This document shows, one piece after another, positions 8,791 to 54,058 of a DNA stretch of 64,000 nucleotides. Within the stretch, counting starts at the first letter, position 1. Each line of letters starts with the position of its first letter. The DNA comes from Escherichia coli. Lineage in GTDB: Bacteria > Pseudomonadota > Gammaproteobacteria > Enterobacterales > Enterobacteriaceae. The notes under the pieces are model-generated. The model did not search any database and was not told the DNA's origin. It was given only the letters and a program-made list of their open reading frames with translations. The position numbers and the translations under genes are program-made. Where the stretch lies: the NCBI RefSeq assembly GCF_030013595.1, contig NZ_CP122768.1. One strand, 5' to 3'.

Positions 8791-8889
8791 AAAAAAGAAA
8801 GCCTGCACTGTGTGCAGGCCTGAGTGAAGAACCTGGGACATTTATTCATCACTCGCAGTAATTTTAATCTGAGTTGAGGTTAAAAAACA

Positions 8890-12367: not shown

Positions 12368-12411
12368 TCCAGCCTGGCGGTGTAATGCACCGCCAATGTG
12401 AGATAGTTTTT

Positions 12412-12618: not shown

Positions 12619-12799
12619 AATTACCGCTACAATTGAAAAGGAAGGTGGCACTCCTACTAACTGGACAAGATATTCAAAATCTAAACTAACGAAATCAGAA
12701 TGCGAAAAAATGCTCTCAGGTAAAAAAGAAGCAGGCGTTTCCAGAGAGCAGAAAGTAAAACTGATAAATTTTAATTGCGAGAAACTTCAGTCCTCGTGA
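12611..12799 (+). CDS. ydaC: Rac prophage small protein YdaC (RcbA)
   Basis: 62-aa ORF MYKITATIEKEGGTPTNW... with GGAGG Shine-Dalgarno; overlaps ralR stop. Confidence 0.7.
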   Translation: MYKITATIEKEGGTPTNWTRYSKSKLTKSECEKMLSGKKEAGVSREQKVKLINFNCEKLQSS

Positions 12800-12898
12800 A
12801 TTGCATTGTATTCAAATTAAAACTTCATAGCTGATTATTAATAATCAACATCAGGCGTCAATTTCAGTCTAACATTGGCGCCTGCCAGAGGTGATGCG

Positions 12899-13114
12899 AT
12901 GGCACAAGTAATCTTTAATGAAGAGTGGATGGTTGAATACGGCCTGATGCTTCGCACTGGTCTGGGGGCCAGACAAATTGAAGCATACCGCCAGAACTGT
13001 TGGGTGGAGGGCTTCCACTTCAAACGAGTATCTCCTTTAGGTAAGCCAGACAGCAAACGAGGGATTATCTGGTACAACTATCCAAAGATAAATCAGTTTA
13101 TCAAAGACTCATGA
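12899..13114 (+). CDS. xisR: Rac prophage excisionase
   Basis: [35 protein letters not shown]...; immediately upstream of the integrase. Confidence 0.8.
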
Positions 13115-13115
13115 T

Positions 13116-14351: not shown

Positions 14352-14403
14352 TTGCAAAGTTTGCCCCCAATTTGCCCCATTGAGTACCAGAGAATCGAAA
14401 TAA

Positions 14404-15338
14404 TGCAAGAAAATCAAAAGAATACAAAGAAAGAACAATACAACCTGAACAAATTACAAAAACGTCTGCGTCGTAACGTGGGCGAAGCCATTGCTGACTT
14501 CAATATGATTGAAGAAGGCGATCGCATCATGGTTTGCCTCTCCGGGGGTAAAGACAGCTATACCATGCTGGAAATTCTGCGCAATTTGCAGCAAAGCGCG
14601 CCAATCAATTTTTCGCTGGTGGCTGTTAACCTCGATCAAAAGCAACCGGGCTTCCCGGAACACGTTCTGCCCGAGTATCTTGAAAAGCTGGGCGTTGAGT
14701 ACAAGATTGTTGAAGAGAACACTTACGGTATCGTGAAAGAGAAGATTCCGGAGGGCAAAACCACTTGCTCACTGTGTTCTCGTCTTCGTCGCGGTATCCT
14801 TTATCGTACCGCAACGGAACTGGGAGCGACGAAGATCGCGCTGGGTCACCATCGTGACGATATCCTGCAAACGTTGTTCTTAAATATGTTCTACGGCGGC
14901 AAGATGAAAGGTATGCCTCCGAAACTGATGAGCGATGATGGCAAACATATCGTGATTCGCCCTCTGGCCTACTGCCGCGAGAAAGATATTCAGCGCTTTG
15001 CCGATGCAAAAGCGTTCCCGATTATTCCGTGCAACCTGTGCGGTTCACAGCCTAACCTGCAACGTCAGGTGATTGCTGACATGTTGCGTGACTGGGATAA
15101 ACGTTATCCGGGGCGTATCGAGACGATGTTCAGCGCGATGCAGAATGTGGTGCCGTCGCATCTGTGCGATACCAACCTGTTCGATTTCAAAGGCATTACC
15201 CACGGTTCTGAAGTGGTTAACGGGGGTGATCTGGCGTTTGATCGCGAAGAGATCCCTCTACAACCGGCGGGTTGGCAGCCTGAAGAAGATGAAAATCAGT
15301 TGGATGAGTTACGACTGAATGTGGTTGAAGTGAAATAA
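14404..15338 (+). CDS. ttcA: tRNA 2-thiocytidine biosynthesis protein TtcA
   Basis: 311 aa from MQENQK..; PP-loop SGGKDS and CxxC motifs; the track ORF 14352.. is a TTG-start extension. Confidence 0.92.
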
Positions 15339-18555: not shown

Positions 18556-19749
18556 ATGATTACGCACAACTTCAATACCCTGGACTTACTCACCAGTCCT
18601 GTCTGGATCGTTTCGCCCTTTGAGGAACAGTTAATTTATGCCAATAGCGCGGCGCGACTGTTGATGCAAGACCTCACGTTTAGTCAGCTACGAACCGGTC
18701 CCTATTCCGTCTCCTCACAAAAAGAACTGCCAAAATACCTCTCCGATCTGCAAAACCAACACGATATTATCGAAATCCTCACCGTTCAACGTAAAGAAGA
18801 GGAAACAGCATTAAGCTGTCGGCTTGTTTTGCGAGAGCTTACAGAAGCAGAACCGGTGATTATTTTCGAAGGTATCGAAGCACCGGCAACGCTGGGTTTA
18901 AAAGCCAGTCGCTCGGCAAATTATCAGCGCAAAAAACAAGGTTTTTATGCGCGCTTTTTTCTGACTAACTCTGCACCAATGTTGTTGATTGACCCCTCAC
19001 GAGATGGCCAAATCGTCGATGCTAACCTCGCCGCGCTCAATTTCTATGGCTATAACCATGAAACGATGTGCCAGAAACATACCTGGGAAATAAATATGCT
19101 CGGGCGACGCGTCATGCCTATCATGCATGAAATTTCGCATTTACCCGGTGGCCATAAGCCTTTGAATTTTGTTCATAAACTGGCGGATGGTTCGACTCGT
19201 CATGTGCAGACCTATGCCGGTCCGATTGAAATTTATGGCGACAAGCTCATGTTATGTATTGTGCATGATATTACTGAGCAAAAACGGCTGGAGGAGCAGC
19301 TGGAACATGCTGCCCACCATGACGCGATGACCGGATTACTGAATCGGCGACAGTTTTATCACATTACCGAGCCAGGCCAAATGCAGCACCTCGCCATCGC
19401 TCAGGATTACAGCTTATTGCTCATCGACACAGATCGTTTTAAACACATTAACGATCTCTATGGGCATTCTAAAGGTGATGAGGTGTTATGCACCCTCGCC
19501 CGCACTCTCGAAAGTTGCGCTCGCAAAGGCGATTTGGTGTTTCGTTGGGGAGGCGAAGAGTTTGTCTTATTGCTACCAAGAACCCCACTGGATACCGCGC
19601 TTTCGCTGGCTGAAACTATCCGCGTAAGCGTGGCAAAAGTGAGTATTTCGGGCTTACCACGCTTTACCGTCAGCATTGGTGTGGCGCATCACGAAGGAAA
19701 TGAAAGCATCGATGAACTGTTTAAACGCGTTGATGATGCTTTGTACTGA
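18556..19749 (+). pseudogene. dgcM: diguanylate cyclase DgcM (YdaM), 3' end interrupted by IS10; translation stops at the first IS10 codon, last 13 codons displaced
   Basis: GGDEF protein ending ...ELFKRVDDALY then TGA inside the IS10 terminus; the expected tail RAKNDGRNRVLAA is encoded in frame on the far side of the IS. Confidence 0.85.
19737..19745. repeat. IS10 target-site duplication, left copy (TGCTTTGTA)
   Basis: Identical 9-mer directly flanks both IS10 ends. Confidence 0.9.
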
Positions 19750-21074
19750 TGAATCCCCTAATGATTTTGGTAAAAATCATTAAGTTAAGGTGGATACACA
19801 TCTTGTCATATGATCAAATGGTTTCGCGAAAAATCAATAATCAGACAACAAGATGTGCGAACTCGATATTTTACACGACTCTCTTTACCAATTCTGCCCC
19901 GAATTACACTTAAAACGACTCAACAGCTTAACGTTGGCTTGCCACGCATTACTTGACTGTAAAACTCTCACTCTTACCGAACTTGGCCGTAACCTGCCAA
20001 CCAAAGCGAGAACAAAACATAACATCAAACGAATCGACCGATTGTTAGGTAATCGTCACCTCCACAAAGAGCGACTCGCTGTATACCGTTGGCATGCTAG
20101 CTTTATCTGTTCGGGCAATACGATGCCCATTGTACTTGTTGACTGGTCTGATATTCGTGAGCAAAAACGACTTATGGTATTGCGAGCTTCAGTCGCACTA
20201 CACGGTCGTTCTGTTACTCTTTATGAGAAAGCGTTCCCGCTTTCAGAGCAATGTTCAAAGAAAGCTCATGACCAATTTCTAGCCGACCTTGCGAGCATTC
20301 TACCGAGTAACACCACACCGCTCATTGTCAGTGATGCTGGCTTTAAAGTGCCATGGTATAAATCCGTTGAGAAGCTGGGTTGGTACTGGTTAAGTCGAGT
20401 AAGAGGAAAAGTACAATATGCAGACCTAGGAGCGGAAAACTGGAAACCTATCAGCAACTTACATGATATGTCATCTAGTCACTCAAAGACTTTAGGCTAT
20501 AAGAGGCTGACTAAAAGCAATCCAATCTCATGCCAAATTCTATTGTATAAATCTCGCTCTAAAGGCCGAAAAAATCAGCGCTCGACACGGACTCATTGTC
20601 ACCACCCGTCACCTAAAATCTACTCAGCGTCGGCAAAGGAGCCATGGGTTCTAGCAACTAACTTACCTGTTGAAATTCGAACACCCAAACAACTTGTTAA
20701 TATCTATTCGAAGCGAATGCAGATTGAAGAAACCTTCCGAGACTTGAAAAGTCCTGCCTACGGACTAGGCCTACGCCATAGCCGAACGAGCAGCTCAGAG
20801 CGTTTTGATATCATGCTGCTAATCGCCCTGATGCTTCAACTAACATGTTGGCTTGCGGGCGTTCATGCTCAGAAACAAGGTTGGGACAAGCACTTCCAGG
20901 CTAACACAGTCAGAAATCGAAACGTACTCTCAACAGTTCGCTTAGGCATGGAAGTTTTGCGGCATTCTGGCTACACAATAACAAGGGAAGACTTACTCGT
21001 GGCTGCAACCCTACTAGCTCAAAATTTATTCACACATGGTTACGCTTTGGGGAAATTATGAGGGGATCTCTCAG
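19746..21074 (+). mobile_element. IS10 insertion sequence, complete (1329 bp), outside end towards dgcM
   Basis: Begins CTGATGAATCCCCTAATGATTTTGGTAAAAATCATTAAG and ends ...GGGGAAATTATGAGGGGATCTCTCAG; length and ends match remembered IS10. Confidence 0.95.
19853..21061 (+). CDS. IS10 transposase
   Basis: 402-aa ORF MCELDILHDSLYQFCPELHLKRLNSL...HGYALGKL matching remembered IS10 transposase. Confidence 0.95.
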   Translation: MCELDILHDSLYQFCPELHLKRLNSLTLACHALLDCKTLTLTELGRNLPTKARTKHNIKRIDRLLGNRHLHKERLAVYRWHASFICSGNTMPIVLVDWSDIREQKRLMVLRASVALHGRSVTLYEKAFPLSEQCSKKAHDQFLADLASILPSNTTPLIVSDAGFKVPWYKSVEKLGWYWLSRVRGKVQYADLGAENWKPISNLHDMSSSHSKTLGYKRLTKSNPISCQILLYKSRSKGRKNQRSTRTHCHHPSPKIYSASAKEPWVLATNLPVEIRTPKQLVNIYSKRMQIEETFRDLKSPAYGLGLRHSRTSSSERFDIMLLIALMLQLTCWLAGVHAQKQGWDKHFQANTVRNRNVLSTVRLGMEVLRHSGYTITREDLLVAATLLAQNLFTHGYALGKL

Positions 21075-21083
21075 TGCTTTGTA
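21075..21083. repeat. IS10 target-site duplication, right copy (TGCTTTGTA)
   Basis: Identical to the 9-mer at 19737..19745. Confidence 0.9.
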
Positions 21084-21710: not shown

Positions 21711-21904
21711 GTAACCTCCTATGCACCTTCACACGTCGTGATTCAGACGGGTTAATTGTTCATACTTACTGCATCGTTCCCTTCACAGATTGAAACAATA
21801 CTCTACTTCATACCTGTGAGTATCTGCGCAGGCGGGGCATTTTATACTAGCCTGTTAGCAGTATCGAACAGTTTAGCCCGAGTTTAATTCAGCACAGGCT
21901 CCGA

Positions 21905-23419
21905 TCAGGATGATTTATTCATAGCAGGAACCAACAAAAATGCGATAAATAACAGACCACTGATTAGCAGAAAGGTATCCGAAAATGCCATAGTTTGCGC
22001 CTCCCTCAGCATCAATTGACTCAATAATTTGGTTGAAGCCAGTATTTCCGATGTCTGGTCACTTCCACTGCGATTAAAAAACAAAGCACTTCTGGAAATG
22101 AAGTCATTCACCGTATGGGGAACAGAAACCATTTTTTCACCCATTCTCGAAAAATGAAAATTAGTTCGATTATTGAGAATAGAGCCACACAGGGCAATAC
22201 CAATCGCGCCCCCAAGATTACGTGTTAAATTAAATACACCAGAGGCTAACTTCAGCCGTTCTTTTGGAATTCCCCCCAGCGTTAATGTTACGATGGGGGC
22301 CATCGCAAACTGCTGCGAAATCCCTCTAATTGCCTGTGGAAACAGTAACTCCTGCCATCCCCATTCGTGGGTTATAGGGGTAAAAAGATACATTGAAAAC
22401 ACAAATCCACCCAGCCCCGCCATCAACAGCCATCGCAGATTTATTTTTTTACTTAACCAGAAGTAAAAGGGAACAGAAAATAACTGGAAAATACCTGTTG
22501 TGCAAACGGCAAAACCTATCTCTTCGGCATTTAATCCGCGAACCTGCCCCAAAAACACAGGTATTAAATATACAGTAGAGAATATCCCAACCCCTCCAGA
22601 AAAAGAAAAAAAGCATCCCAGCGTGAAATTTTTATCCTTAAAAGCATGAAGATCCATTATCGGATTGGATATTGTAAGTGTACGCGCAGCAAATAAAATA
22701 AAACTCACCAATGCCAGAACTGATGTCAGCAAAATAGTATTATCATCCAGCCATCCCCAGCGCGCTCCTTCTTCAAGGGTATATTCCAGACATCCCAGTG
22801 TCATGGCCAACAGGATAATACTCGGATAATCAGCAACTTTCAGTAAAGAGAGATCAGGTTTATCAAAATTAACCAGAAAAGGAATACTCAAAACTAAATA
22901 TATGCCAGGTAATATATTGATATAAAATAGCCATCGCCAGTCGAGGTTATCAGTGATCCAGCCCCCCAGAGTTGGCCCTAGCGTCGGTGACAGTGAGGCC
23001 AGCGCACTGACTACCGCAGCAGCCACCCCCAACTCTTTACCCTGGTAATAAATAAACGCCGTCGTGAAAACTAAAGGGATCATGGATGCGCCAGCCGCTC
23101 CCTGTAAAGCACGAAACAAAATCATGATCTGAATATTCCATGCAAGTCCACACGCGATACTCATTAAAGTAAATATTCCCGCGGATAGAGTAAAAAGCCA
23201 ACGAGTGGAAAATACCCGTGACAGCCACCCAGAGAGCGGAATAACAATAATCTCAGCAATTAAATAGCTGGTCTGAAGCCAGGCCATTTCGTCTTTACCT
23301 GCGGACAGACCACCACCTATTTCATTTAGGGATGACGATACAATTTGAATATCAAGCTGAGCAATAAATAATCCCATACACATACTGGCGAAAGCAATAT
23401 GTTTACGCATAGACATCAT
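21905..23419 (-). CDS. MFS drug-efflux transporter, EmrB/QacA-like (14-TMS type)
   Basis: 504-aa highly hydrophobic ORF with typical MFS features; start overlaps the stop of the upstream fusion-protein gene. Confidence 0.8.
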   Translation of the reverse strand: MMSMRKHIAFASMCMGLFIAQLDIQIVSSSLNEIGGGLSAGKDEMAWLQTSYLIAEIIVIPLSGWLSRVFSTRWLFTLSAGIFTLMSIACGLAWNIQIMILFRALQGAAGASMIPLVFTTAFIYYQGKELGVAAAVVSALASLSPTLGPTLGGWITDNLDWRWLFYINILPGIYLVLSIPFLVNFDKPDLSLLKVADYPSIILLAMTLGCLEYTLEEGARWGWLDDNTILLTSVLALVSFILFAARTLTISNPIMDLHAFKDKNFTLGCFFSFSGGVGIFSTVYLIPVFLGQVRGLNAEEIGFAVCTTGIFQLFSVPFYFWLSKKINLRWLLMAGLGGFVFSMYLFTPITHEWGWQELLFPQAIRGISQQFAMAPIVTLTLGGIPKERLKLASGVFNLTRNLGGAIGIALCGSILNNRTNFHFSRMGEKMVSVPHTVNDFISRSALFFNRSGSDQTSEILASTKLLSQLMLREAQTMAFSDTFLLISGLLFIAFLLVPAMNKSS

Positions 23420-24447
23420 CTCTCATCAACACTGACGGTGACGGACAGTCCCGGGCGAAGAAGTTGCTTTAATTCCTTTGCGTCGTCAAATGCAATCCGT
23501 ACCGGGACTCGCTGAACAATTTTGGTGAAATTGCCAGTGGCATTTTCTATCGGAATCAAGCTGAAACTGGCTCCTGTCGCTGGGGAAAGGCTTTCAATGT
23601 GACCGTGAAACACTTCCCCTTTGAGAATATCAGCACGGATCTCAGCCTTCATTCCTGGCTTCATTCCCGCTATTTGGTTTTCTTTATAATTTGCATCAAC
23701 CCACAACTCACTGACTGGTACAAGTGAAACTAACGATGTGCCACCTTCCACCCAACTGCCTGTATGGGCGCTGCGGTTTGCGACAATGCCATCAATCGGC
23801 GCACGAACAAGGGTATATTCCAGATCCAGTAGTGCCTGAGTCAAAGCGGCCTGAACTTCTTCGATACTCGCACGTACGTTTTCTTCCTGAGCAGATAAAA
23901 CTGCCAGCCGTTGCTTCTCCACCAGGAAATCGTTCGCGGCTTTGCGCTCCTTTGCTGCGACCTGCTGGTAGTCAAACCTGGCATTATCAATAATTTGTTG
24001 CGATATTGCCGCTGATTGTGCGAGTTTTTCATAACGTTCAGTATCTCGCAGGCGCTTTTGCTCCTCATGTTTTACTGCCTGCCATGTTTCACTGGCACTT
24101 TGAATTATCGACTGCTGCATCGCAATAGTGGCTTGAATGCTTTCGAGATTGGCTTTGCTACTTTTTATTTTTGCCTCAAGCCTGGCGACATTTGCACGAT
24201 AATCCCGATCATCGAGACGCAGGATAATATCGCCTTTTTTTACGCTCTGATTATCGCGCACCTCTATAGCAGAAATATAACCAGAAACTTTACTTGCCAC
24301 CGTGGTGATATTACCACCAATGTAAGCATCATCCGTCGTCTGTATAAATCTTCCTGTGCTTACCCACCAGATAAAAAAGACAACGCCAGCTAAAATAATA
24401 CCGATCGCTACCACCCCAATAAGCTGTTTTTTAGAAATTATCATCAC
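23416..24447 (-). CDS. membrane fusion protein, EmrA/HlyD family
   Basis: 343-aa ORF with N-terminal TM anchor, coiled-coil region and C-terminal beta domain. Confidence 0.8.
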   Translation of the reverse strand: MMIISKKQLIGVVAIGIILAGVVFFIWWVSTGRFIQTTDDAYIGGNITTVASKVSGYISAIEVRDNQSVKKGDIILRLDDRDYRANVARLEAKIKSSKANLESIQATIAMQQSIIQSASETWQAVKHEEQKRLRDTERYEKLAQSAAISQQIIDNARFDYQQVAAKERKAANDFLVEKQRLAVLSAQEENVRASIEEVQAALTQALLDLEYTLVRAPIDGIVANRSAHTGSWVEGGTSLVSLVPVSELWVDANYKENQIAGMKPGMKAEIRADILKGEVFHGHIESLSPATGASFSLIPIENATGNFTKIVQRVPVRIAFDDAKELKQLLRPGLSVTVSVDER

Positions 24448-24540
24448 TCTTTACACCGTATATATCCGGAAACTTGCATTCGTCATATTTAAAATTTAAC
24501 ATGGCTTATTTGATGATTTCTGACAAAATACCTACTGTAA

Positions 24541-25356
24541 ATGACAATCACACTGCAACCCAAAGCATCACCAGGGCATCACATTATCGGACTGGATTCG
24601 GAACATCTGAATGGAGGTACAGTTCCCTGGCATAAACATCTCTATGCCCAGTTGCTTTACCCGGCTGAAGGAGTCGTTCGTGTATGGGCTGGAGAAAGCG
24701 TCTGGCTAGTGCATGCCAGCAGCGCGCTTTGGCTGCCCCCACAAATGCCGCATAAGTTTGTTGCGACAGGCAACGTACTTTTAAAAACCGTACTGGTTTC
24801 AGAAGCGGAAAGTGAAACGCTGGGAAAAGTTTGCTTCATGACGGGTATTTCACCCCTGTTAAGGGAATTACTAATTGCAATTAACCAACTTCCACCGTCG
24901 CAAAGTACCACAGATAAACAACAGTTACGTTTTTCAGCCCTCGAGACACTGATACTTCAGGAAATAAAAATGGGGGTGAAAATGTCACTTGAACTCCCTT
25001 GGCCAAATGATGAGCGGCTACAGCAGCTTTGTGAGAATTTGCTAAACAACCAAGGGTATCTGCCAACATTGGATAATCTAGCGGATAAAATTAACGTCAG
25101 TAGCCGTACACTCATGCGCTTATTTGTTAAAGAGACGGGATTAACATTTCGCCACTGGGTTCAGCAAATGCACGTTATTTCTGCAGTGACGCTTCTTGAT
25201 GATGGATATTCGTTGACCAAAATTGCCCATCGTCTGGGCTATGCCTCAGCTGAATCGTTCGGCAATATGTTTAAGCGTCGAACGGGCTACTCGCCCGGTA
25301 AATTTACTCGTCGATTAACGATGCATGATTATGCAATCACAAGACAAATGATTTAA
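24541..25356 (+). CDS. AraC-family transcriptional regulator (cupin-like N-terminus, HTH C-terminus)
   Basis: 271-aa ORF, divergent from the efflux genes; C-terminal AraC-type HTH region. Confidence 0.75.
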   Translation: MTITLQPKASPGHHIIGLDSEHLNGGTVPWHKHLYAQLLYPAEGVVRVWAGESVWLVHASSALWLPPQMPHKFVATGNVLLKTVLVSEAESETLGKVCFMTGISPLLRELLIAINQLPPSQSTTDKQQLRFSALETLILQEIKMGVKMSLELPWPNDERLQQLCENLLNNQGYLPTLDNLADKINVSSRTLMRLFVKETGLTFRHWVQQMHVISAVTLLDDGYSLTKIAHRLGYASAESFGNMFKRRTGYSPGKFTRRLTMHDYAITRQMI

Positions 25357-42385: not shown

Positions 42386-43927
42386 TTACTCTTCGTTCTT
42401 CTTCTGACTCAGACCGTATTCCCGCAACTTATTTGCAATCGCGGTATGCGAAACGCCCAGGCGTTTTGCCAGTTTGCGCGTGCTGGGATAATTGCGATAA
42501 AGCTGGGTTAATACCGAGCGTTCAAAACGGCTGGTGATTTCGTCCAGCGAACCTTCCATCGCATCTTCGCCCACGGCTACCGTTGCGGCGTCATAATCCG
42601 GTAACAAAATATCCTGTGGACGCAGCTCATAACCGTCCAGTTGTGTCAGTGCGCGATAAATAGCGTTCTTTAACTGCCGCACATTTCCCGGCCACGCATA
42701 ACGCGTAAGTACAGTATTCAGGTCAGCGGCCAGTTTCGGACGCGGCACGCCCTGCTCGTCGGCAAAGCGGGCGACGAACAGCTCGGTTAACGGCATGATG
42801 TCCTGCGGACAGTCACGTAGCGGCGGCAGATTGAGCGTCAACACGTTCAGACGATAATAGAGATCTTCACGGAACACGCCTTTTTGCACCAGTTCGACAA
42901 GATTCTTCTGCGTAGCGCAAATCACCCGCACATCGACATGCACCTCATGGTCTTCGCCAACCCGACGGAAAGTGCCATCATTAAGGAAACGCAGTAATTT
43001 CGCCTGCATCCGTGGTGACATCTCACCTATTTCATCCAGCAGTACCGAACCACCGTTCGCCTGCTCAAAGAACCCTTTCTTCCCTTCCGGGGCATGACCA
43101 AACAATTCACTCTCGACCGCATCTTCCGGGATAGAAGCACAGTTCAGCGCCAGATAGGGTTTGCCCGCGCGTGGGCTTGCCTGATGACAGGCATACGCAA
43201 AGAGATCTTTTCCGGTGCCGGTATCACCGGTTATCAGCAGCGGCGCGCTTAGCATCGCCAGTTTCTGCGCCTGTTCGACAACATGCTTCATTTTCGGGCT
43301 GACGGCGACAATTTGACTAAAGGCGCTGACGTCCTGGGCGGCGACATTTTGCAACTGACGGCCCATACGAATCGTTGATCGCAGCATCACCACCGCACCG
43401 GTCAGGACGTGTTGATCATTTTCATCCTGAAGATAAACAGGCGTAATCTCCATCAGGAAATTCTGTCCATTAATAACGACATGCTCGTTATGGGAATCCT
43501 GCGGTTCGCTTTCCAGCCAGCGTAAAAAATTAAAGCCGTTAATCAATTGTGCGGCGGTATGGTTGCGCAGGCGATCCAATTTTTGCCCAAAAAGCTGACA
43601 GCTCGCCGGGTTCGCCATATCCACTTTGCTTTTCATATCGACAGAGAGCACAGGTTCAGGCAACGCCTCCAGTAACGCGCTCAACGCCAGATGCTCACGT
43701 TCGGAAGGCATCCACGGGACAGTACGGACATCGGTAACACCTGCAATACGGCGTATTTCGGCCATCAGACTGCTGAAACTCTCAAACTCCAGTTCAGCAA
43801 AATTGAGGTAGATTCGCCCAATGGGGTCAATCTCAATACCGCGTAAATCAATGCCTCTTAGCACGAGTAGATCGAGTAATTCGCGGGTCAGACCGAGTCG
43901 GTCTTCACAAAAGACTTCCAGACGCAT
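42386..43927 (-). CDS. tyrR: aromatic amino-acid regulator TyrR (sigma-54-activator-family AAA+)
   Basis: 513 aa from MRLEVFCEDRLGLTRELLDLL...; GDTGTGK and GAFTGA-like motifs. Confidence 0.95.
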   Translation of the reverse strand: MRLEVFCEDRLGLTRELLDLLVLRGIDLRGIEIDPIGRIYLNFAELEFESFSSLMAEIRRIAGVTDVRTVPWMPSEREHLALSALLEALPEPVLSVDMKSKVDMANPASCQLFGQKLDRLRNHTAAQLINGFNFLRWLESEPQDSHNEHVVINGQNFLMEITPVYLQDENDQHVLTGAVVMLRSTIRMGRQLQNVAAQDVSAFSQIVAVSPKMKHVVEQAQKLAMLSAPLLITGDTGTGKDLFAYACHQASPRAGKPYLALNCASIPEDAVESELFGHAPEGKKGFFEQANGGSVLLDEIGEMSPRMQAKLLRFLNDGTFRRVGEDHEVHVDVRVICATQKNLVELVQKGVFREDLYYRLNVLTLNLPPLRDCPQDIMPLTELFVARFADEQGVPRPKLAADLNTVLTRYAWPGNVRQLKNAIYRALTQLDGYELRPQDILLPDYDAATVAVGEDAMEGSLDEITSRFERSVLTQLYRNYPSTRKLAKRLGVSHTAIANKLREYGLSQKKNEE

Positions 43928-43997
43928 GGGAACCTTCACCTGAAAAAAGAACAATTAATATGATGATATGACACTATTTGGATAGCAGGAAGGTTTC

Positions 43998-44015
43998 TGT
44001 CAACAATCATTGACA
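43998..44015. promoter_or_regulatory. TyrR box (TGTCAA-N6-TTGACA) upstream of tyrR
   Basis: Palindrome matching TyrR box consensus TGTAAA-N6-TTTACA about 70 bp upstream of the tyrR start. Confidence 0.55.
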
Positions 44016-44074
44016 CAAAGACGGAAAAACGGGCACTTCGGCGTAAAGATATCCGGTCAGCACCCGATATTGCA

Positions 44075-45136
44075 TTATTTTTCGCTGGGCGTTTTGCCTT
44101 TTTGCAGCGTCTCTTTCACCTGACCGATAAGCTGACGACGGAAATCCCCGAGGCGAGGTTTGTCATCGTCAATCCACGGCAGAGGGCGGCAAAGCTCCAT
44201 AGCTTTAATCCCCAGTCGTGCCGTCAGAAGTCCTGCACCAATCCCCTGAGCTGCCCGGGTAGACAAACGCGCAGCGAGATCTTGCGACATCCAGTCCATC
44301 CCCACTTCGCGCACCAGTTCGCTGGCTCCGGCGAAAGCGATATTCAGCAATACCAGCTTAAACAGGCGCAAACGGCTGTAATACCCCAGTTCAATGCCAT
44401 ACAGCGTGGCGATGCGATTAATCAAACGCAGATTGCGCCAGGCGATAAATGCCATATCCACCAGTGCCAGCGGGCTGACCGCAATCATCAATGTTGATTC
44501 CGCTGCCGAACGGCTGATTTCGCGCCGCGCCTGGGCATCTAAAACTGGCTGGACCAAATGCGCATACAAACTGACCACTTCACGGTCGTTTTGCGTTTCA
44601 TGGATTGAGGCATACCAGCGTTGCAGAGCCGGATGTGACTGATCGATACCCGCCTGCTGCGCCAGTTTTTCGCAGAATGCACGGCCTTTACCCGTGCCGT
44701 GACTGTGCAACAAATCGCGCGCTTCGTCGCGTTCATGGGCGCGCTGTCGCAAGCGCCATAAGCGCCGCCACTCTGTTACCACAGAACCTACGCCAGCGCC
44801 GATAATCAATGCCCCAGCGGCACATCCACCCAGCGCTACCCAATCCTGAGTTTGCCAGGCGTTCATTGTCCACTGCACGCCCTGCCCGACAACGCTTGCG
44901 CCAAACAGAGCCAACCCGCCCATCACCATTTTGCGCCACAGGCTGCGTTTCGGACGTAACGCTGCGTCGATCACCGCTTCAACTTGCCCCTCTTCTTCCT
45001 GCGCTTCGTCGAGCGTGGCCGGGGCAAAATTTTGCGCCTGATTTTCGTCAAAGGTCTGTTGCGCCCTGAATTTTGGATTCTGATCAACCTCCAGTGGACC
45101 GTCGAAATCAATACGTGGTTTTAACGGTTCGGTCAT
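44075..45136 (-). CDS. ycjF: inner-membrane protein YcjF
   Basis: 353-aa ORF, translationally coupled to ycjX. Confidence 0.9.
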
Positions 45137-46530
45137 CGCAATTTATCTCCTATTAAAAATTCCAGCGCAGCATCAAGACGAATATGCGGCAGCGGTTTGT
45201 CGACATCCATCACCTGCGGACGAAACGCCTCAAACTGGAAGCCTTGCTTATCCCAGAACGCCTGACCAGGTAAACGCGCGGGAACTTCGCCAGGATAAAC
45301 AGTGAGCGGTGCGCCATCGCTGAGTCGATTACCGCGCAGCGCCGGGATTTTCTCACCGTTAACATCAATAATGCCGCTGGTGGTCGCCTGAACTGACGCC
45401 AGCCCCAGGCAGTCCATGCTGATCCCTTCGAACGCCGCATTTTGCCAGGCATCCTGAATTAGTTGTTGCAGTAATGAAACCATATTAGCGTGCTGATCGA
45501 TGGTCACATGGTCCGCTTTAGTGGCAGCAAACAATAGCTTATCGATAACCGGCGAAAACAAACGCCGGAACAGGGTGCGCTGCCCGTAGTGAAAACTTTG
45601 CATCAGTTGCGTCAGCGCCAGACGCATATCATTAAATGCCTGTGGCCCACTGTTGAGAGGTTGCAGGCAGTCCACCAGCACAATCTGGCGGTCAAAGCGC
45701 AGAAAATGATTCTTATAGAACCCCTTCACCACCTTCTCGCAATAATAATTAAAGCGCTCGCGCAGCATTCCGGCATTGGTATGCTTATCGGCCTGCGCCA
45801 GTTTGGACTCACCCCAGGCATCGACATCCGGCCACGGGAAGAATTGCAGCGCGGGCGCACCTGCCATATCTCCTGGCAAGACAAAGCGCCCAGGCTGAAT
45901 AAAGTGCAGCCCCTGCTGTTTACAGTGGTGGAGATAATCGGTCCAGGCGGCGGCAATGTCTGCCAGCCGGTTTTCGTCGGCAGGCGCTAGCGGGTCCAGC
46001 CCTTCGCACATCATTCGCCATTTCGCCGACCATTCGCCGCGCTGACCATTAAGTAAGCCCGTCATCTGGCGCGACCAGCTTAAATAGTCCTGCGCCAGCA
46101 TCGGCAGGTCGAGCAACCATTCGCCGGGATAATCCACAATTTCCAGATACAGCGTGGAGGTGTCCTTGAAGTGGCGTAGCAGCGAATCGTTCGATTTAAA
46201 ACGTAGCGCCAGGCGGATTTCACTGACGCCGCGCGTTGGCGTTGGCCAGGCGGGAGGATCGCCATATAACTGCGCCAGCCCTTCATCATAGGTGAAGCGC
46301 GGAATGCCAAAGTCACGCTGGGGAATGCGTTTTACGCCCAGCAGACGCTCTTCACGCACCGCACTTAATAGCGGCAAACGTGCTCCGGCGTGAATATTGA
46401 GCAACTGATTGACCATCGCAGTAATAAACGCCGTTTTGCCGCTGCGGCTAAGTCCGGTTACGGCGAGGCGCAGATGTCTGTCGACACCCCGATTCACCAG
46501 CGCATTAAGTTCATTTTTAAGTCGCTTCAT
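45133..46530 (-). CDS. ycjX: P-loop NTPase YcjX
   Basis: 465 aa; Walker A GLSRSGKT. Confidence 0.9.
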
Positions 46531-46648
46531 TGCTGTCCTGTGCCAGAAAGCTGTAGAAAGGATTAGATACTGGAGATAATAATGTGGGTTAATTTTGATT
46601 TATCAAATGAATAAGCGGCGTTGTTTACACCGCTCAATAAGTAATTTG

Positions 46649-46963
46649 TTAACCTTTGACCATCGGCATTGCGATGTCTTTCAGGCCGCCGGCGTTCTCA
46701 ACGTGGGTATATCCCATCTCGCTAAGGATCTCTTTTGCCTGCCCTGACTGGCGTCCGGCATTGCAATACACTTTCACGGTGTCGTTTTTATCCGGAACGG
46801 CGGTGGCAATGCGCTCTTTTACTTCCTTCAGGGGAATATTGATGGCTCCCTGAACGTGCTCTTGCTGATACTGCTCTGGAACACGAACATCGATCCAATG
46901 TTCAGCGGCGAAAACGGGCAGTGAAAACAACAGTGTCAGAGCAAGTAAGCCTTTTTTAAACAT
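46649..46963 (-). CDS. pspE: periplasmic rhodanese PspE
   Basis: 104 aa with signal peptide and active-site Cys (VYCNAGRQS). Confidence 0.92.
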   Translation of the reverse strand: MFKKGLLALTLLFSLPVFAAEHWIDVRVPEQYQQEHVQGAINIPLKEVKERIATAVPDKNDTVKVYCNAGRQSGQAKEILSEMGYTHVENAGGLKDIAMPMVKG

Positions 46964-47037
46964 GTAAGCGTCCTTCTATGGATGATAATTGCCATCCATA
47001 ATACGCCTTAGCTTTAACAATTTTTGCGAAACTCCCC

Positions 47038-47259
47038 TCACCTTTTATAACGCTGCGCCAGTTTATTGGCAGCCCGACTTAACAGCGGTTCCAGCGCCAC
47101 AGCCAGCAACATTTTCAGCGGTCGGCGAGCAACTGATTTTATCGCCCAGCCCGCCACACCCGCCGGGCCATAGCGCAGTGCGGTAAGAAGTACCAGCTTG
47201 CCTGCTAATTTGAAACCAGGCTTCACCTTTTGCCCGGCCTGTTGCCAGCGAGTATTCAT
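47038..47259 (-). CDS. pspD: phage shock protein D
   Basis: 73 aa from [15 protein letters not shown]... Confidence 0.9.
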
Positions 47260-47267
47260 AACTTTCC

Positions 47268-47627
47268 TCACAGTTGACGGAAACGGCTACGTAACGTGAA
47301 AGTATCGGAAGTGACATAACGTTCCATCTCGCGTAAACGCGTTTCACTTGCCGCCAGTTCACGGTCGACTTCATCCAGCAATTCACTGCTGGAAGGTAGC
47401 TGCTCACCAAAGGCCATGTTGTCCGGCATTGGATCAAGCGCAAATGACAAAATGATGTAAGCAACCAGGGTAAACAGCGCCAGACCGAAGAAAATCGACA
47501 GCACCACCAGGATACGCACCAGTTTTACTGGTACATCAAAATAGTTGGCAATCCCGGCGCAGACGCCACGGACCATGCCCTGCTGTGGAATACGCCATAA
47601 TTTTTTATTGAGATTAATGCCCGCCAT
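47268..47627 (-). CDS. pspC: phage shock protein C
   Basis: 119-aa ORF with TM segment. Confidence 0.92.
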
Positions 47628-47851
47628 TAGCGATCCCTCCAGTTCGGATGTTCTGCATCAAGAATGGATTCCAGCGCCTGAATACGTTCGCGCATCCGTT
47701 TTGCTTCATCAGCCAGTTGCGCTAATCGCTGCTGCTCACTTTGCGACAATTCACTGCGACCAGAACGATTGCTGTAATGCAGCCATAACCAGATCGGTAA
47801 AACAAACAGCACAAAAATGGTTAACGGAATAGCCAGAAATAGCGCGCTCAT
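47627..47851 (-). CDS. pspB: phage shock protein B
   Basis: 74-aa ORF with N-terminal TM helix. Confidence 0.92.
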   Translation of the reverse strand: MSALFLAIPLTIFVLFVLPIWLWLHYSNRSGRSELSQSEQQRLAQLADEAKRMRERIQALESILDAEHPNWRDR

Positions 47852-47904
47852 AAGGACTCCTTAGACGATGAGCGGCGGCGCGTTCAGACGCCGCCTGGAT
47901 GTTA

Positions 47905-48645
<741 letters not shown>

Positions 48646-48739
48646 TTATCTTTTTGATTTATAAAGATCTGATTGAAGAATCAACAGCAACATGCCAGGA
48701 TGAGTTAGCGAATTACACTAACAAGTGGCGAATTTCATC

Positions 48740-49717
48740 ATGGCAGAATACAAAGATAATTTACTCGGTGAGGCGAACAGCTTTCTCGAAGTGCTGGAAC
48801 AGGTTTCGCATCTCGCACCGCTGGACAAACCGGTGCTCATCATCGGCGAGCGCGGCACAGGTAAAGAGCTGATTGCCAGCCGTCTGCATTATCTCTCCTC
48901 CCGTTGGCAGGGGCCGTTTATTTCCCTTAACTGCGCGGCGTTAAATGAAAATCTGCTGGATTCCGAACTGTTTGGTCACGAAGCGGGCGCGTTTACCGGT
49001 GCGCAAAAACGTCATCCAGGGAGATTTGAACGTGCCGACGGCGGTACGCTATTTCTTGATGAACTCGCTACGGCACCGATGATGGTGCAGGAGAAATTAT
49101 TGCGCGTGATTGAGTACGGTGAACTGGAGCGCGTTGGCGGCAGCCAGCCATTGCAGGTGAATGTGCGGTTGGTATGCGCGACGAATGCCGATCTCCCGGC
49201 GATGGTCAATGAAGGTACTTTTCGCGCTGACCTGCTCGACCGGCTGGCTTTCGATGTAGTGCAACTGCCGCCCCTGCGCGAGCGCGAAAGCGACATTATG
49301 CTGATGGCAGAACACTTTGCCATTCAGATGTGTCGGGAAATCAAGCTGCCTCTGTTCCCGGGGTTTACGGAGCGCGCCAGAGAAACATTGCTGAATTATC
49401 GCTGGCCGGGAAATATTCGTGAATTGAAAAACGTGGTGGAACGTTCAGTATATCGCCACGGCACCAGCGATTATCCGCTTGATGACATTATTATTGATCC
49501 CTTTAAACGGCGTCCGCCTGAAGACGCTATCGCCGTTTCAGAAACCACCTCGCTTCCAACACTGCCGCTGGATTTACGTGAGTTTCAGATGCAGCAGGAA
49601 AAAGAGTTGCTGCAACTCAGTTTGCAACAAGGGAAATATAACCAGAAGCGCGCAGCTGAATTGCTGGGGTTAACCTATCATCAGTTCCGCGCGTTGTTGA
49701 AAAAGCACCAGATTTAG
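48740..49717 (+). CDS. pspF: psp operon sigma-54 activator PspF
   Basis: 325 aa from MAEYKDNLLGEANSFLEVLEQV... Confidence 0.93.
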   Translation: MAEYKDNLLGEANSFLEVLEQVSHLAPLDKPVLIIGERGTGKELIASRLHYLSSRWQGPFISLNCAALNENLLDSELFGHEAGAFTGAQKRHPGRFERADGGTLFLDELATAPMMVQEKLLRVIEYGELERVGGSQPLQVNVRLVCATNADLPAMVNEGTFRADLLDRLAFDVVQLPPLRERESDIMLMAEHFAIQMCREIKLPLFPGFTERARETLLNYRWPGNIRELKNVVERSVYRHGTSDYPLDDIIIDPFKRRPPEDAIAVSETTSLPTLPLDLREFQMQQEKELLQLSLQQGKYNQKRAAELLGLTYHQFRALLKKHQI

Positions 49718-49836: not shown

Positions 49837-51102
49837 TTAATCGTTCAGCGCATCCTGCAATATTTTCATTGCCGCATCGAATTGCGCATCCGGGATGGTC
49901 AGCGGATACAGGAAGCGAATCACGTTGCCGTATGCGCCACAGGTCAGCAGAAGCAGCCCCTGCGCCAGCGCGCGTTGCTGGATTTTCTGTGCAATCGCCG
50001 CTGACGGCTCGCCCGTTTGCGGATCGTTAAACTCTGCCGCAATCATAGACCCCAGACCGCGTACCGCCGCGATGGCCGGAACGCTTTCTTTGGCATCAAT
50101 CAACGTGTTTGTCAGGCGCTGGCCCAGTTGATTCGCGCGTTCACAGAGTGATTCTTTGTCGATAATGTTGAGCACAGCGTGCGCGGCAGCCACCGCCAGC
50201 GGGTTCCCGGCGTAAGTACCACCCAACCCGCCCGGCGCGGGCGCGTCCATAATATTCGCGTTACCGACCACGCCCGAAAGCGGCATGCCTCCCGCGATGC
50301 TTTTCGCCATCGTCATTAAGTCCGGCTTATCGGCGTAGTGATCCATGGCAAACAGTTTACCGGTACGCGCAAAGCCGCTTTGCACTTCATCGGCAATCAT
50401 CACAATGCCGTGCTCGTCGCACAGGCGGCGAATGGCGGCAACCAGCTCTTTTGGTGCAACGTTGAAACCGCCTTCGCCCTGCACCGGTTCGAAAATAATC
50501 GCCGCCACCTGTTTCGCTTCAATGTCCGATTTAAACAAGCGTTCGATGGCGTCGAGGGAGTCCTGCGTTGAAACGCCATGTAAATCTGACGGATAAGGTA
50601 CGTGATACACCGAACCGGGGAACGGGCCGAAGCCGATTTTGTACGGCGCGACCTTTCCGGTCAGCGCCATGGTCATATATGTACGACCGTGGAAGCCGCC
50701 GCTAAACGCAATCACGCCAGGGCGTCCGGTATGGGCGCGGGCGATTTTCACCGCGTTCTCAACCGCTTCCGCACCGGTGGTGAAGAACGCAGTTTTAGCC
50801 TGCCCGCTCACCGGGGCAAGGGCGTTAATTTTCTCCGCCAGGGTGACGTAGCTTTCGTACGGCACAATCTGATACGCCGTGTGGGTAAACTGTTGCAATT
50901 GCTGCTCCACCGCCGCGACCAGATCAGGGTGGCGATGCCCGGTATTCAGCACCGCAATGCCTGCGGCGAAATCGATGTATTCGTTGCCCTCTACGTCCTT
51001 CAGCGTAGCGTTTTCTGCCGACTGGGCGAAGAAGTTACACATCACGCCAACCCCGCGTGGGGTAGCAGAAAGACGACGCTGATGGAATTCATTGTTGCTC
51101 AT
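49837..51102 (-). CDS. puuE: 4-aminobutyrate aminotransferase PuuE
   Basis: 421-aa class III aminotransferase. Confidence 0.93.
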   Translation of the reverse strand: MSNNEFHQRRLSATPRGVGVMCNFFAQSAENATLKDVEGNEYIDFAAGIAVLNTGHRHPDLVAAVEQQLQQFTHTAYQIVPYESYVTLAEKINALAPVSGQAKTAFFTTGAEAVENAVKIARAHTGRPGVIAFSGGFHGRTYMTMALTGKVAPYKIGFGPFPGSVYHVPYPSDLHGVSTQDSLDAIERLFKSDIEAKQVAAIIFEPVQGEGGFNVAPKELVAAIRRLCDEHGIVMIADEVQSGFARTGKLFAMDHYADKPDLMTMAKSIAGGMPLSGVVGNANIMDAPAPGGLGGTYAGNPLAVAAAHAVLNIIDKESLCERANQLGQRLTNTLIDAKESVPAIAAVRGLGSMIAAEFNDPQTGEPSAAIAQKIQQRALAQGLLLLTCGAYGNVIRFLYPLTIPDAQFDAAMKILQDALND

Positions 51103-51139
51103 GTTTCACACCTTTTGACTCTTCACTGTTAATCGGAAA

Positions 51140-52420
51140 TTAAACGCCCAGACGATCGCGCAGGCTGTAATAAGCCGCGCCCATCGCGGTAAATGGCACG
51201 CGCAGCGTGCGCCCGCTGGGGAACGGGTAATGCGGCAGATTGGCGAAGGCATCGAAACGTTCGGCGTCGCCGCGCAGCAGTTCGGCAATCAAACGCCCGG
51301 CAAGATGGGTACAGGTGACGCCGTGGCCGCTGTAACCCTGCATGTAATAGATGTTGGTATCAAGGCGACCGAACTGCGGCATGCGCGACAAGGTCAGCAG
51401 GAAGTTGCCCGTCCAGCGGTAATCAATTTTCACGCCCTTCAGCTGCGGGAAGGTTTTCAGCAGTTTCGGCACCACAAGGCGCTCAACGTCATCCGGGTCG
51501 CGCGCGCCGTAGACCACGCCGCCGCCGTACAGCAGGCGGTTATCGGCGGTAAGACGGTAGTAATCAAGCAGATAGTTACAGTCTTCAACGCAGTAGTTTT
51601 TCGGGATCAGCGAACGGGCTAAATCTTCCGACAGCCGCTCGGTGGTGATCACCTGCGTGCCGCACGGCATGCTGCGTTTCGCTAGTTCCGGCTCTACTTT
51701 ATCGCCCAGATACGCATTCCCGGCGACAATCACATACTTCGCCGTCACCTGACCATTGGCAGTCCGCACCACGGCTGGCGTGGTGTGCTGGATCTGCGTC
51801 ACGGCGGAAAGCTCATACACGCGCCCTCCGTTCAGGCGGATGGCATCGGCTTCACCAATGGCGAGGTTTAGCGGGTGAATATGCCCACCGCTGTGATCCA
51901 GCAGCGCACCAGTGTAGCGATCGCTGGCGACCTCGCGGCGAATAGCGTTGGCGTCCAGCAGCTCCAGCTGTTTATTGCCGTAGCGTTCCCAGTTCTCTTT
52001 CTGCTCTTCGAGTGTGGCGAGCTGTTTATCATTCATCGCCACAAACAGGCCGCCGGGGCGATAGTCGCAGTCAATCTGATAACGTTTGATACGTTCGCGG
52101 ATGATCTCGCCACCCTCGAACATCATGCTGCCGAGCATACGGGCGGTGTCCATGCCGTAGCTTTTTTCGATGACGTCGATGTCGCGGCTGTAGGAGTTCA
52201 CAAGCTGCCCGCCGTTGCGTCCGCTTGCGCCGAAGCCGATGCGTGAGGCTTCAAGAACCACCACGTCAAAGCCCGCTTCCGCCAGATGCAGCGCGGAGGA
52301 AAGCCCGGTATAGCCGCCGCCAACCACGCAAACATCGCAGGAAATCGACTCATTCAGTGTGTCGAATGGCGCGTATTTATTCGCACTGGCGGCGTAATAA
52401 CTGCTGGTATGTTCGGTCAT
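51140..52420 (-). CDS. puuB: gamma-glutamylputrescine oxidase PuuB
   Basis: 426 aa with N-terminal FAD-binding motif VCVVGGGYTG. Confidence 0.93.
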   Translation of the reverse strand: MTEHTSSYYAASANKYAPFDTLNESISCDVCVVGGGYTGLSSALHLAEAGFDVVVLEASRIGFGASGRNGGQLVNSYSRDIDVIEKSYGMDTARMLGSMMFEGGEIIRERIKRYQIDCDYRPGGLFVAMNDKQLATLEEQKENWERYGNKQLELLDANAIRREVASDRYTGALLDHSGGHIHPLNLAIGEADAIRLNGGRVYELSAVTQIQHTTPAVVRTANGQVTAKYVIVAGNAYLGDKVEPELAKRSMPCGTQVITTERLSEDLARSLIPKNYCVEDCNYLLDYYRLTADNRLLYGGGVVYGARDPDDVERLVVPKLLKTFPQLKGVKIDYRWTGNFLLTLSRMPQFGRLDTNIYYMQGYSGHGVTCTHLAGRLIAELLRGDAERFDAFANLPHYPFPSGRTLRVPFTAMGAAYYSLRDRLGV

Positions 52421-52421
52421 T

Positions 52422-53909
52422 TCAGGCCTCCAGGCTTATCCAGATAGTTTTCAGTTCAGTGAATTTTTCAAGGGCGTGCAGGGATTTGTCGCGACCGTTG
52501 CCGCTCTGCTTATAGCCGCCAAACGGCACGGTCATATCGCCGTCGTTGTAGTTATTGACAAAGACGGAACCGGCTTTCAGGCGACGGCTCATGCGGTGCG
52601 CGCGGGAGAGGTCGCGCGTCCATACCGCCGCGCCGAGGCCGTACTGGCTGTCGTTAGCAAGCTGAAGCGCCTGATCTTCTGATGTGAAACGCGTGACCAC
52701 CAACACCGGGCCGAAAATCTCTTCGCGGCTTAAGGACGCATTCGGGTCTACGTCTACAAAGATCGTCGGGCCGATGGCGGCAGCCAGCTCGGCGTTACGG
52801 CCATCCAGCAGCAGTTGCCCTTTGCTTTCGCCTTCCCGAATAAAGCTATGGACCGAGTCGGCGTGGGCGCAGTCGATTAAGGTGCCCATGGTGGTTGCGG
52901 GATCAAGTGGATGGCCCGGCTGCCAGTTTTGCGCCTGCTGTTTTAACAGGGCTAAGAATTCATCGGCGATGCTCTCTTCTAGCAACAAACGCGTTCCGGC
53001 GATGCACACCTGGCCCTGGTTGTAGAAAATGCCTGCGGCGGTGGCGCTTGCCGCCTGTTGCAAATCCGGGCAGTCGGCGAAAACGATGTTGGCGCTTTTG
53101 CCGCCCGCTTCCAGCCAGACGCGTTTCATGTTGCTGTCGCCTGCATCTTTCAGCAGCTGTTTCCCGGTACGGGTCGAACCGGTAAAGGCGATGGCGTCGA
53201 TATCGTTATGACGCGAAAGCGCCTGCCCCGCTTCATGACCAAAACCCGTCACCACGTTCAACACACCATCCGGCAAGCCTGCCTCTTTAGCCAGCCCGGC
53301 GAGACGAATCGCACTGAGCGGTGATTTTTCAGACGGTTTCAGAATCACGCTGTTTCCCGCCGCCAGCGCCGGGCCGAGTTTCCAGCAAGTCAGCAGCAGC
53401 GGGAAGTTCCACGGCACGATGGCGGCAATCACGCCGACCGGTTCACGCACGATCATCGCCAGCTCATGGCTACTGGTGGTCGCCACTTCGCCATACACTT
53501 TGTCGATCGCTTCGGCGTACCAGCGAATGGCGCGTGCCGCGCCGGGAATATCATCACGCAGGCTGTGACAAATCGGTTTGCCGGTGTCGAGCGTTTCCAG
53601 CAGCGCCAGTTCTTCAGCGTTAGCTTCCATTAAATCGGCGAGTTTATTCAGCACCGCTTTACGCTTAGCCGGAGAAGAGAGTGACCAGTCGCCACGTTCA
53701 AACACGCCGCGTGCTGCGCTCACCGCACGGTCAATATCGACGCTCTTGCCGCGGGCAATATTCGCCAGCGGTGCCTGGGTGACCGGATCAACGGTTTCAA
53801 AAGTTTCATTTTCCGCCGCAGCAGTATATTCACCGTTAATAAATAAGCGGGTTTCAATGGCGAGACTTAACGCTTTATCCTGCCAGTAAGCCAGATGATG
53901 AAAATTCAT
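52422..53909 (-). CDS. puuC: gamma-glutamyl-gamma-aminobutyraldehyde dehydrogenase PuuC
   Basis: 495 aa from MNFHHLAYWQDKA...; aldehyde dehydrogenase. Confidence 0.9.
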   Translation of the reverse strand: MNFHHLAYWQDKALSLAIETRLFINGEYTAAAENETFETVDPVTQAPLANIARGKSVDIDRAVSAARGVFERGDWSLSSPAKRKAVLNKLADLMEANAEELALLETLDTGKPICHSLRDDIPGAARAIRWYAEAIDKVYGEVATTSSHELAMIVREPVGVIAAIVPWNFPLLLTCWKLGPALAAGNSVILKPSEKSPLSAIRLAGLAKEAGLPDGVLNVVTGFGHEAGQALSRHNDIDAIAFTGSTRTGKQLLKDAGDSNMKRVWLEAGGKSANIVFADCPDLQQAASATAAGIFYNQGQVCIAGTRLLLEESIADEFLALLKQQAQNWQPGHPLDPATTMGTLIDCAHADSVHSFIREGESKGQLLLDGRNAELAAAIGPTIFVDVDPNASLSREEIFGPVLVVTRFTSEDQALQLANDSQYGLGAAVWTRDLSRAHRMSRRLKAGSVFVNNYNDGDMTVPFGGYKQSGNGRDKSLHALEKFTELKTIWISLEA

Positions 53910-54058
53910 TATGACTCCTGTTTCACGTCTATCAGATATATGCAGTTTGTGAACGTCAGGGCGCAGAGATCCCCGGGCCGTATGCCCGTTTATTTCTGGC
54001 GACATTCTTTATAGATTGCCGGGCGCATTGCGCTTACCCGGCTTACAGAACAAAAAGA

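Follow-up and report, generated by a model that had tools for sequence, protein, structure and literature searches.

The window, the whole 64,000-nucleotide stretch of Escherichia coli DNA analysed here (contig NZ_CP122768.1), carries the psp operon next to ycjX-ycjF-tyrR on the minus strand. The open reading frame (ORF) list and the sequence place pspE and ycjX 118 bp apart, the gap extending from 46531 to 46648 on that strand; the distance of 118 bp given in the original prediction agrees with these coordinates. The features of the locus are as follows.

42386-45136, minus strand: ycjF and tyrR, downstream of ycjX
42386-43954, minus strand: tyrR (ORF list; TyrR in NCBIfam)
44075-45136, minus strand: ycjF (ORF list; YcjF family in NCBIfam)
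45133-46530, minus strand: ycjX, 465 aa, YcjX-family GTP-binding protein, ATG at 46530, first gene of ycjX-ycjF-tyrR
46531-46543, minus strand: ycjX leader, 13 bp, also present in K-12-type alleles; contains the ribosome-binding site (AGGA, 46536-46539)
46544-46648, no strand assigned: allele-specific spacer core, 105 bp, with no blastn counterpart in K-12, where 14,100 bp sit instead
46579-46606, minus strand: ycjX promoter-like element, TTGATA (46606-46601), 16 nt, CATTAT (46584-46579), 9 of 12 matches in the scan
46612-46636, minus strand: terminator-like hairpin, 10-bp stem, 5-nt loop and T-rich tail TTCATTT; passed the consensus scan
46649-46963, minus strand: pspE, 104 aa, thiosulfate sulfurtransferase, last gene of pspABCDE, stop codon at 46649-46651
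47038-48573, minus strand: pspD, pspC, pspB and pspA, the upstream genes of the psp operon, 99.5-100% amino acid identity to K-12
47038-47271, minus strand: pspD (longest ORF; ORF list and NCBIfam)
47905-48573, minus strand: pspA (ORF list and NCBIfam)
48725-49717, divergent: pspF (ORF list)

Both genes flanking the gap are full length (PspE, 104 aa; YcjX, 465 aa). In tblastn searches with K-12 proteins, the psp, ycjX, ycjF and tyrR products were 97-100% identical to their K-12 counterparts, with amino acid identities of 99.4% for YcjX and 97.1% for PspE. The latter matched the NCBIfam model NF007627 with 209.9 bits against a cutoff of 102, and the models for PspE, PspD, PspA, TyrR and the YcjF family all scored well over their cutoffs. 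In HCP5S3_I2, a genome that is 100% identical at the locus, the gene downstream of the gap is annotated as ycjX. That genome has its ycjF labelled as frameshifted, with coordinates that slip by 1 bp, whereas the window has an intact ORF of 353 aa; the frameshift is probably a homopolymer error in the HCP5S3_I2 assembly.

The hairpin begins 12 nt past the pspE stop codon and folds as RNA with -14.7 kcal/mol (z = -3.5), none of 200 shuffled sequences being as stable. Its tail, UUAUUCAUUU, is a weak and imperfect U-run, and its stem is kept, with changes, in E. albertii, in E. fergusonii and in a genome deposited as 'E. coli SCPM-O-B-8794' (hereafter L003). Judging from the sequence, the hairpin probably forms the end of the psp/pspE transcript. 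Closer to ycjX, a CCCACATT box (46588-46581) overlaps the promoter-like element and resembles the -10 consensus of sigma-32. This sigma factor recognises a TTGAAA-like -35 and a CCCCATNT-like -10, and ycjX and ycjF are said to have been placed in its regulon by Nonaka and colleagues in 2006. The likeness of the box makes it a candidate sigma-32 promoter for ycjX; a literature search for such a promoter returned a microarray table and no direct support. The arrangement TTGATAA...CCC(C/A)A, 51-53 nt before the ycjX ATG, recurs in Escherichia (E. albertii included), Enterobacter and Citrobacter, at 6 of the 80 loci of the scan described below against 0 expected from shuffles; the K-12 version has a slightly longer spacer between the two parts. 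Within the ycjX leader, GCACAGGACAGCA is the same in the window, K-12, E. albertii and the B2 strain IHE3034. A hidden RNA gene in the spacer was also considered, but an Rfam scan of 46300-47100 gave no RNA family match. With its putative terminator and promoter, the spacer appears to be laid out as an ordinary functional intergenic region.

Several other parts of the window differ from related genomes. A Rac-like prophage (~1-14,330; integrase at ~13,092-14,327) adjoins ttcA (~14,379-15,314) and is 85-96% identical in patches to the Rac prophage of K-12, with the best matches at recE, recT and the intR side. In HCP5S3_I2, though it is otherwise near-identical to the window, uspF and ttcA are adjacent and the prophage is missing; the window strain is therefore a related but different one. 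An IS4-family element, ISVsa5 (IS10-like; 19,739-21,083), shares 99.7% identity with the one that interrupts nifJ in HCP5S3_I2. It sits ~43 bp before the 3' end of dgcM, at a site that is empty in both HCP5S3_I2 and K-12; the alignments on its two sides overlap by 9 bp, as a target-site duplication would produce. Between smrA and abgR (~21,720-25,320), ~3.6 kb are missing from K-12; the HCP5S3_I2 annotation of this segment lists a DHA2 MFS efflux permease (frameshifted), an HlyD-family protein and an AraC-family regulator. The puuE-puuB-puuC region (50,000-54,000) is the part of the window most diverged from K-12, at 94.6-96.9% identity against ~98% elsewhere. The whole puu cluster is missing from IHE3034, where pspF is followed by ymjA, and also from E. 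fergusonii and L003.

The K-12 block and its absence from the window

In K-12 strain ER2796, 14,113 bp lie between the ycjX start and the pspE stop, and this interval holds ycjW, ompG, ycjV (frameshifted), pgmB (ycjU), ycjT, ycjS, ycjR, ycjQ, ycjP, ycjO, ycjN and ycjM. K-12 MG1655 carries the identical block (100% identity). Both genomes bear out the K-12 gene order and the size of about 13-14 kb that the original prediction gave for the block, and the alignment to MG1655 that had been proposed as a check finds the block in place there, with pspE and ycjX not adjacent in K-12. A tblastn search of the entire 64 kb with every protein of the K-12 block (E <= 1e-5) gave zero matches; the statement that no remnant of the block is left thus holds for block proteins anywhere in the window.

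Nucleotide homology between the window and K-12 (blastn) ends at 46543, 13 bp before the ycjX ATG, and restarts exactly at 46649, at the pspE stop codon. Between these points the window has 105 bp without a K-12 counterpart and K-12 has 14,100 bp, made up of the ycjW...ycjM block and its own intergenic DNA, so that the two alleles differ by a replacement and not by a clean insertion or deletion. No K-12-type intergenic sequence or block remnant was detected in the window spacer by blastn. In the 90 bp that precede ycjX, identity between the window and K-12-type alleles is 59%, barely more than the ~50% that unrelated spacers reach with the same scoring; the K-12-type alleles compared, from groups A, B2 and E plus CT282 (K-12, O157:H7, IHE3034 and CT282), are 95-98% identical to one another. 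A sensitive alignment with the K-12 intergenic regions recovered short shared elements only, namely the 5' half of the hairpin after pspE, GAGCGG(C/T)G, and the box TTGATAA ... CCCACATT upstream of ycjX. The K-12 locus is like that of the window in its flanking genes (96-99% DNA identity), in the 13-bp ycjX leader, in the terminator-like hairpin that follows pspE and in the promoter-like box TTGATA...CCCACATT, but these putative terminator and promoter regions are only ~60% identical to those of the window. It also encodes the repressor YcjW, whose operators lie ahead of ycjM and in the ycjT-ycjU interval (PMC6599011); the window lacks both the repressor and these operators. The identity of 96-99% near the junction is typical of the remaining window.

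The block has a G+C content of 51.0%, against 49.8-53.8% in its flanks. No mobility gene (integrase or transposase) is annotated in the block at six block-bearing E. coli loci, and a repeat search found no terminal direct repeats at the ends of the K-12 block. The classical marks of a genomic island, a mobility gene, terminal repeats and atypical G+C, are all missing; spread through homologous recombination of the conserved flanks would be the most economical reading. In several lineages that keep it, the block is decaying: ycjM and ycjN are pseudogenes in O157:H7, with an internal stop in ycjN and a frameshift in ycjM in N8B7-2 and 2024CK-1897675 (L087 and L089; 17,902-20,886), and ycjV is frameshifted in K-12.

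The empty site in Escherichia and related genera

We scanned one genome per species for YcjX and mapped the resulting 80 loci, from Enterobacterales and Vibrionaceae, with K-12 proteins. In most of these loci the psp operon directly abuts ycjX-ycjF-tyrR; in E. albertii, SCPM-O-B-8794, Citrobacter youngae and Phytobacter, pspE is the gene immediately preceding ycjX. The pspE-ycjX gap measures 118-124 bp in E. albertii (120 bp), L003 and E. fergusonii (124 bp, with adjacency in 5/5 genomes); in C. youngae the spacer is 151 bp and the gene order is unchanged. The L003 locus is 87-94% identical to the window, and we therefore treat this genome as a cryptic Escherichia lineage. When aligned end to end, the window spacer is 90.7% identical to that of L003 and 85.8% identical to that of E. 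albertii, in line with the 7-12% divergence of the flanks from the same two genomes. The spacers of E. albertii NBRC 107761 and L003, which have the adjacency without the block, thus align base for base with that of the window, although they and E. fergusonii belong to other species with flanks diverged by 7-20%; the E. fergusonii spacer is very divergent, and its recognisable parts are the hairpin and the ribosome-binding site region only. Since the non-coli Escherichia lineages examined (E. albertii, L003 and E. fergusonii) are all empty and two of them have an orthologous spacer, we take the adjacency to be ancestral for the genus and the block to be derived in E. coli. As cited in PMC13118800, Deng et al. 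(2014) proposed a marker role for ycjM, which enteric E. coli would have and environmental Escherichia would lack; this agrees with the block being derived in E. coli.

The E. fergusonii loci were found through a PspE cluster in which 15/15 listed members are labelled E. fergusonii. Their psp-ycjX-tyrR locus (L095-L099) is ~80-82% identical to that of E. coli, and their PspE (L095, 10,001-10,318; 105 aa) is 73% identical to the PspE of the window, about equal to the Citrobacter PspE clusters (105 aa, 70-72%), a divergence unexpectedly high for a sister species. The identity of 80-82% raised the doubt that L095 might not be E. fergusonii; this was dropped in view of the cluster labels and of four more genomes with the same layout.

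The survey of E. coli itself covered 5,426 complete genomes. The flanks were matched in 5,423 of them and were contiguous in 372, and a 145-bp spacer query hit exactly those 372 genomes, with one chromosomal copy each and at least 97.9% identity. The K-12 block was matched in 5,051 genomes, at least 80% of it in 4,943 and part of it in the other 108. Because 372 and 5,051 add up to 5,423, the two states partition the flank-matching genomes, and in none of the empty ones is the block found at another site. The empty allele accounts for ~7% (6.9%) of complete E. coli genomes. Identity of the block to K-12 is 99.9-100% in K-12-like genomes, ~98.3% in a large other group, 96.7% in O157:H7 (E) and 95.4-95.7% in B2 (IHE3034, ABU 83972), and the block junctions are alike in every block-bearing strain inspected. 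This pattern points to a block that may have been acquired once and long enough ago to diverge with the phylogroups.

The gene order of strain 042 (NC_017626.1) and the other spacer carriers is the same as that of the window. Their 118-bp spacer is 100% identical to the window's in 042, N3, NRZ14408 and ST2747 and 99.2% identical in Ecol_545, and their flanks, which cluster with the window, are 98-99.7% identical to it (0.3-2.4% difference). A 918-bp query was matched identically only in two pig isolates, HCP5S3_I2 and LCP30S3_I5. The window allele is thus the one found in 042 and others, a known kind of accessory-gene polymorphism that is already present in public genomes. Strain 042 is a phylogroup-D reference. 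Its presence among the empties and the way these group in the flank trees suggest that the empty clade is phylogroup D, and the share of 6.9% would fit this; in the literature on ompG or ycjM and phylogroup we found no statement that phylogroup D lacks the block, the reviews citing only the work of Deng et al. on ycjM as an enteric marker. Apart from these two states, a PspE variant 81% identical to that of the window and labelled E. coli occurs on ~50 contigs, O146 included (cluster P0022/P0125), which suggests that a third, divergent pspE allele circulates in E. coli.

Origin of the empty site

The above findings make it very probable that the window carries an ancestral-type empty pspE-ycjX allele and that its spacer is a complete native intergenic region. 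According to this model, the spacer would descend from the spacer of the genus ancestor and would never have been interrupted by the block. In most E. coli, 14.1 kb would have replaced the non-coding DNA from the pspE stop to 13 bp before ycjX, bringing along their own diverged terminator and ycjX-promoter regions, which would make the block the derived state within Escherichia. The empty allele is fixed in one E. coli clade, 042 included, which may have kept it from an ancestral polymorphism or regained it through allelic replacement. That the spacer DNA was never interrupted we hold with high confidence; the direction of change would be from empty to block. The original prediction had left the choice between a deletion and the ancestral state. 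Its second option is the one that stands, at the level of an ancestral-type allele, the spacer being homologous to those of E. albertii and L003; its first fell, the junction not being fused K-12-type sequence.

For a de novo deletion, a K-12-like ancestor would have to have lost 14 kb through an illegitimate, repeat-mediated or IS-mediated event, with the 118 bp as the scar. Losses in the block do occur, as the 108 partial-block genomes attest, ETEC1739 being one example, and the decay of ycjV in K-12 and of ycjM and ycjN in O157:H7 goes in the same direction. The 105-bp core, however, is not K-12-type and matches the spacers of other Escherichia species, and the spacer has an organised layout of putative terminator and promoter. 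The K-12 block, for its part, has no direct repeats at its ends from which a precise excision could arise. The proposed look for scars or repeats at the junction yielded nothing, as neither the sequence nor the repeat search revealed an IS, a truncated gene or a repeat there in the window. We consider this course of events highly improbable, and a de novo deletion from K-12-like sequence essentially excluded. ETEC1739 (NZ_CP122758.1) offers the contrast: like the window, it lacks ycjM-V and ompG between pspE and ycjX, but it keeps a K-12-type ycjW-ycjX intergenic region and 330 bp from the 5' end of ycjW, next to an IS1 and a pspE that is cut short, none of which the window has, and it is a true secondary deletion mediated by IS1. 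That an assembly or scaffolding artefact collapsed the region is hardly credible at all, given that the identical junction is present in 372 independent complete chromosomes, 042 among them, and that the window sequence reads through without ambiguity.

The history of the flanks was approached with bootstrapped neighbour-joining trees, one for the 3.9 kb of tyrR-ycjX on the left and one for the 3.1 kb of pspE-pspF on the right. The taxa were six empties (window, 042, NRZ14408, ST2747, N3 and Ecol_545), six block-bearers and two outgroups. The empties formed one clade (bootstrap 98-100%) nested inside E. coli among the block-bearers, and monophyly of the block-bearers was recovered in ~0% of replicates. 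Within ycjX and pspE-pspA, not one site separates all empties from all block-bearers, the few fixed sites lying in tyrR and pspF. The flanks have therefore been homogenised by recombination as far as the junction, and their trees do not record how the indel itself arose; with long branches as the root and recombination throughout, they weigh little either way. A footprint of import in the coding flanks, in the form of elevated divergence or fixed differences, was also looked for, with none in ycjX or pspE-pspA. A scenario in which phylogroup D branched off before the gain is not supported, in view of the nested empties and of the 4.3-4.6% difference between the B2 and K-12 blocks. By that same divergence, the block looks as old as E. 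coli itself.

These trees bear on allelic replacement, in which the ancestor of the empty clade would have had the block and lost it by recombination in pspE and ycjX with an empty-site allele of another E. coli or Escherichia strain; the junction DNA would then still be of ancestral type, and the organismal lineage a loser of the block. The nesting of the empties among block-bearers favours this route, as do the free recombination in the flanks right to the junction and the divergence of the block, which tracks labelled or inferred groups and suggests that the common ancestor of E. coli had it. The supporting flank trees, however, are neighbour-joining trees with long-branch rooting in a recombining region, and no donor has been identified. 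The spacer is as far from L003 and E. albertii as the flanks are, which is what vertical descent predicts, and sorting of an ancestral polymorphism covers the same data without an extra event. Allelic replacement is in our judgement possible but rather unlikely. We give less credence still, as a speculative extension, to a single entry of the block into the E. coli ancestor, as a cassette from another genus that replaced the whole spacer, followed by an old and possibly balanced polymorphism of which phylogroup D kept the ancestral allele. If true, full and empty alleles would have persisted while recombination erased all linkage right up to where pspE ends and to the ribosome-binding site of ycjX, the donor genus would already have had the block beside ycjX, and the polymorphism could be linked to niche.

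Outside Escherichia, Enterobacter cloacae, an Enterobacter metagenome-assembled genome (MAG) and Superficieibacter have the block immediately before ycjX, all three with a ycjW-ycjX intergenic region of 155 bp as in E. coli; Siccibacter has it there as well. Citrobacter sp. FP75 (L029) and C. werkmanii (L057) resemble the window in that pspE is the gene preceding ycjX and that the short DNA between the two contains a TTGATAA...CCCCCA promoter-like box, but differ from it in that the block is present on the other side of pspE, in the order ycjW-pspE-ycjX (8,300-10,000). About 65 bp beside the ycjW start are homologous in E. coli and Citrobacter. The same ycjW end is joined to different neighbours, which means that the relative position of block and pspE has changed among genera; by this comparison, either the block or pspE would have moved within the Citrobacter/E. 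coli locus. Since Enterobacter, Superficieibacter, Siccibacter and some Citrobacter also carry it at this locus, the block is old in the family, and its repeated loss at family depth is conceivable.

Consequences for strains with the empty site

In terms of gene content, the window strain would be without the glucosylglycerate phosphorylase YcjM, the kojibiose phosphorylase YcjT, the beta-phosphoglucomutase and the YcjQRS enzymes, as well as the YcjNOP/V ABC transporter, the OmpG porin and the LacI-type repressor YcjW. Catabolic genes for kojibiose, glucosylglycerate and glucosides would thus be missing, and effects on phenotype may be expected. The original prediction spoke of the removal of a sugar-utilisation cluster and of OmpG: the strain does lack them, but no trace in the window DNA tells of their earlier presence.

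In K-12, YcjW represses ycjM-V and ompG from one site ahead of ycjM and another in the ycjT-ycjU interval, and its loss raises both the expression of pspE and the PspE-dependent production of H2S (PMC6599011). The window strain has no YcjW, and its pspE is therefore outside YcjW influence; transcription of the gene would depend on the promoter of the psp operon and on that of pspE itself. The K-12-based model linking YcjW, pspE and H2S describes a circuit that cannot exist in the empty clade.

Beyond bookkeeping the significance of these findings is small, as this is ordinary strain-to-strain variation in gene content. In annotation, the junction should be treated as a native intergenic region, with a putative pspE terminator and ycjX promoter, and not as a deletion, and PCR markers for 'enteric E. 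coli' based on ycjM would miss the empty clade. The K-12 gene order at pspE-ycjX is not the default of the species: about 7% of sequenced E. coli, the window strain included, are naturally without OmpG, the YcjM-V sugar pathway and YcjW.
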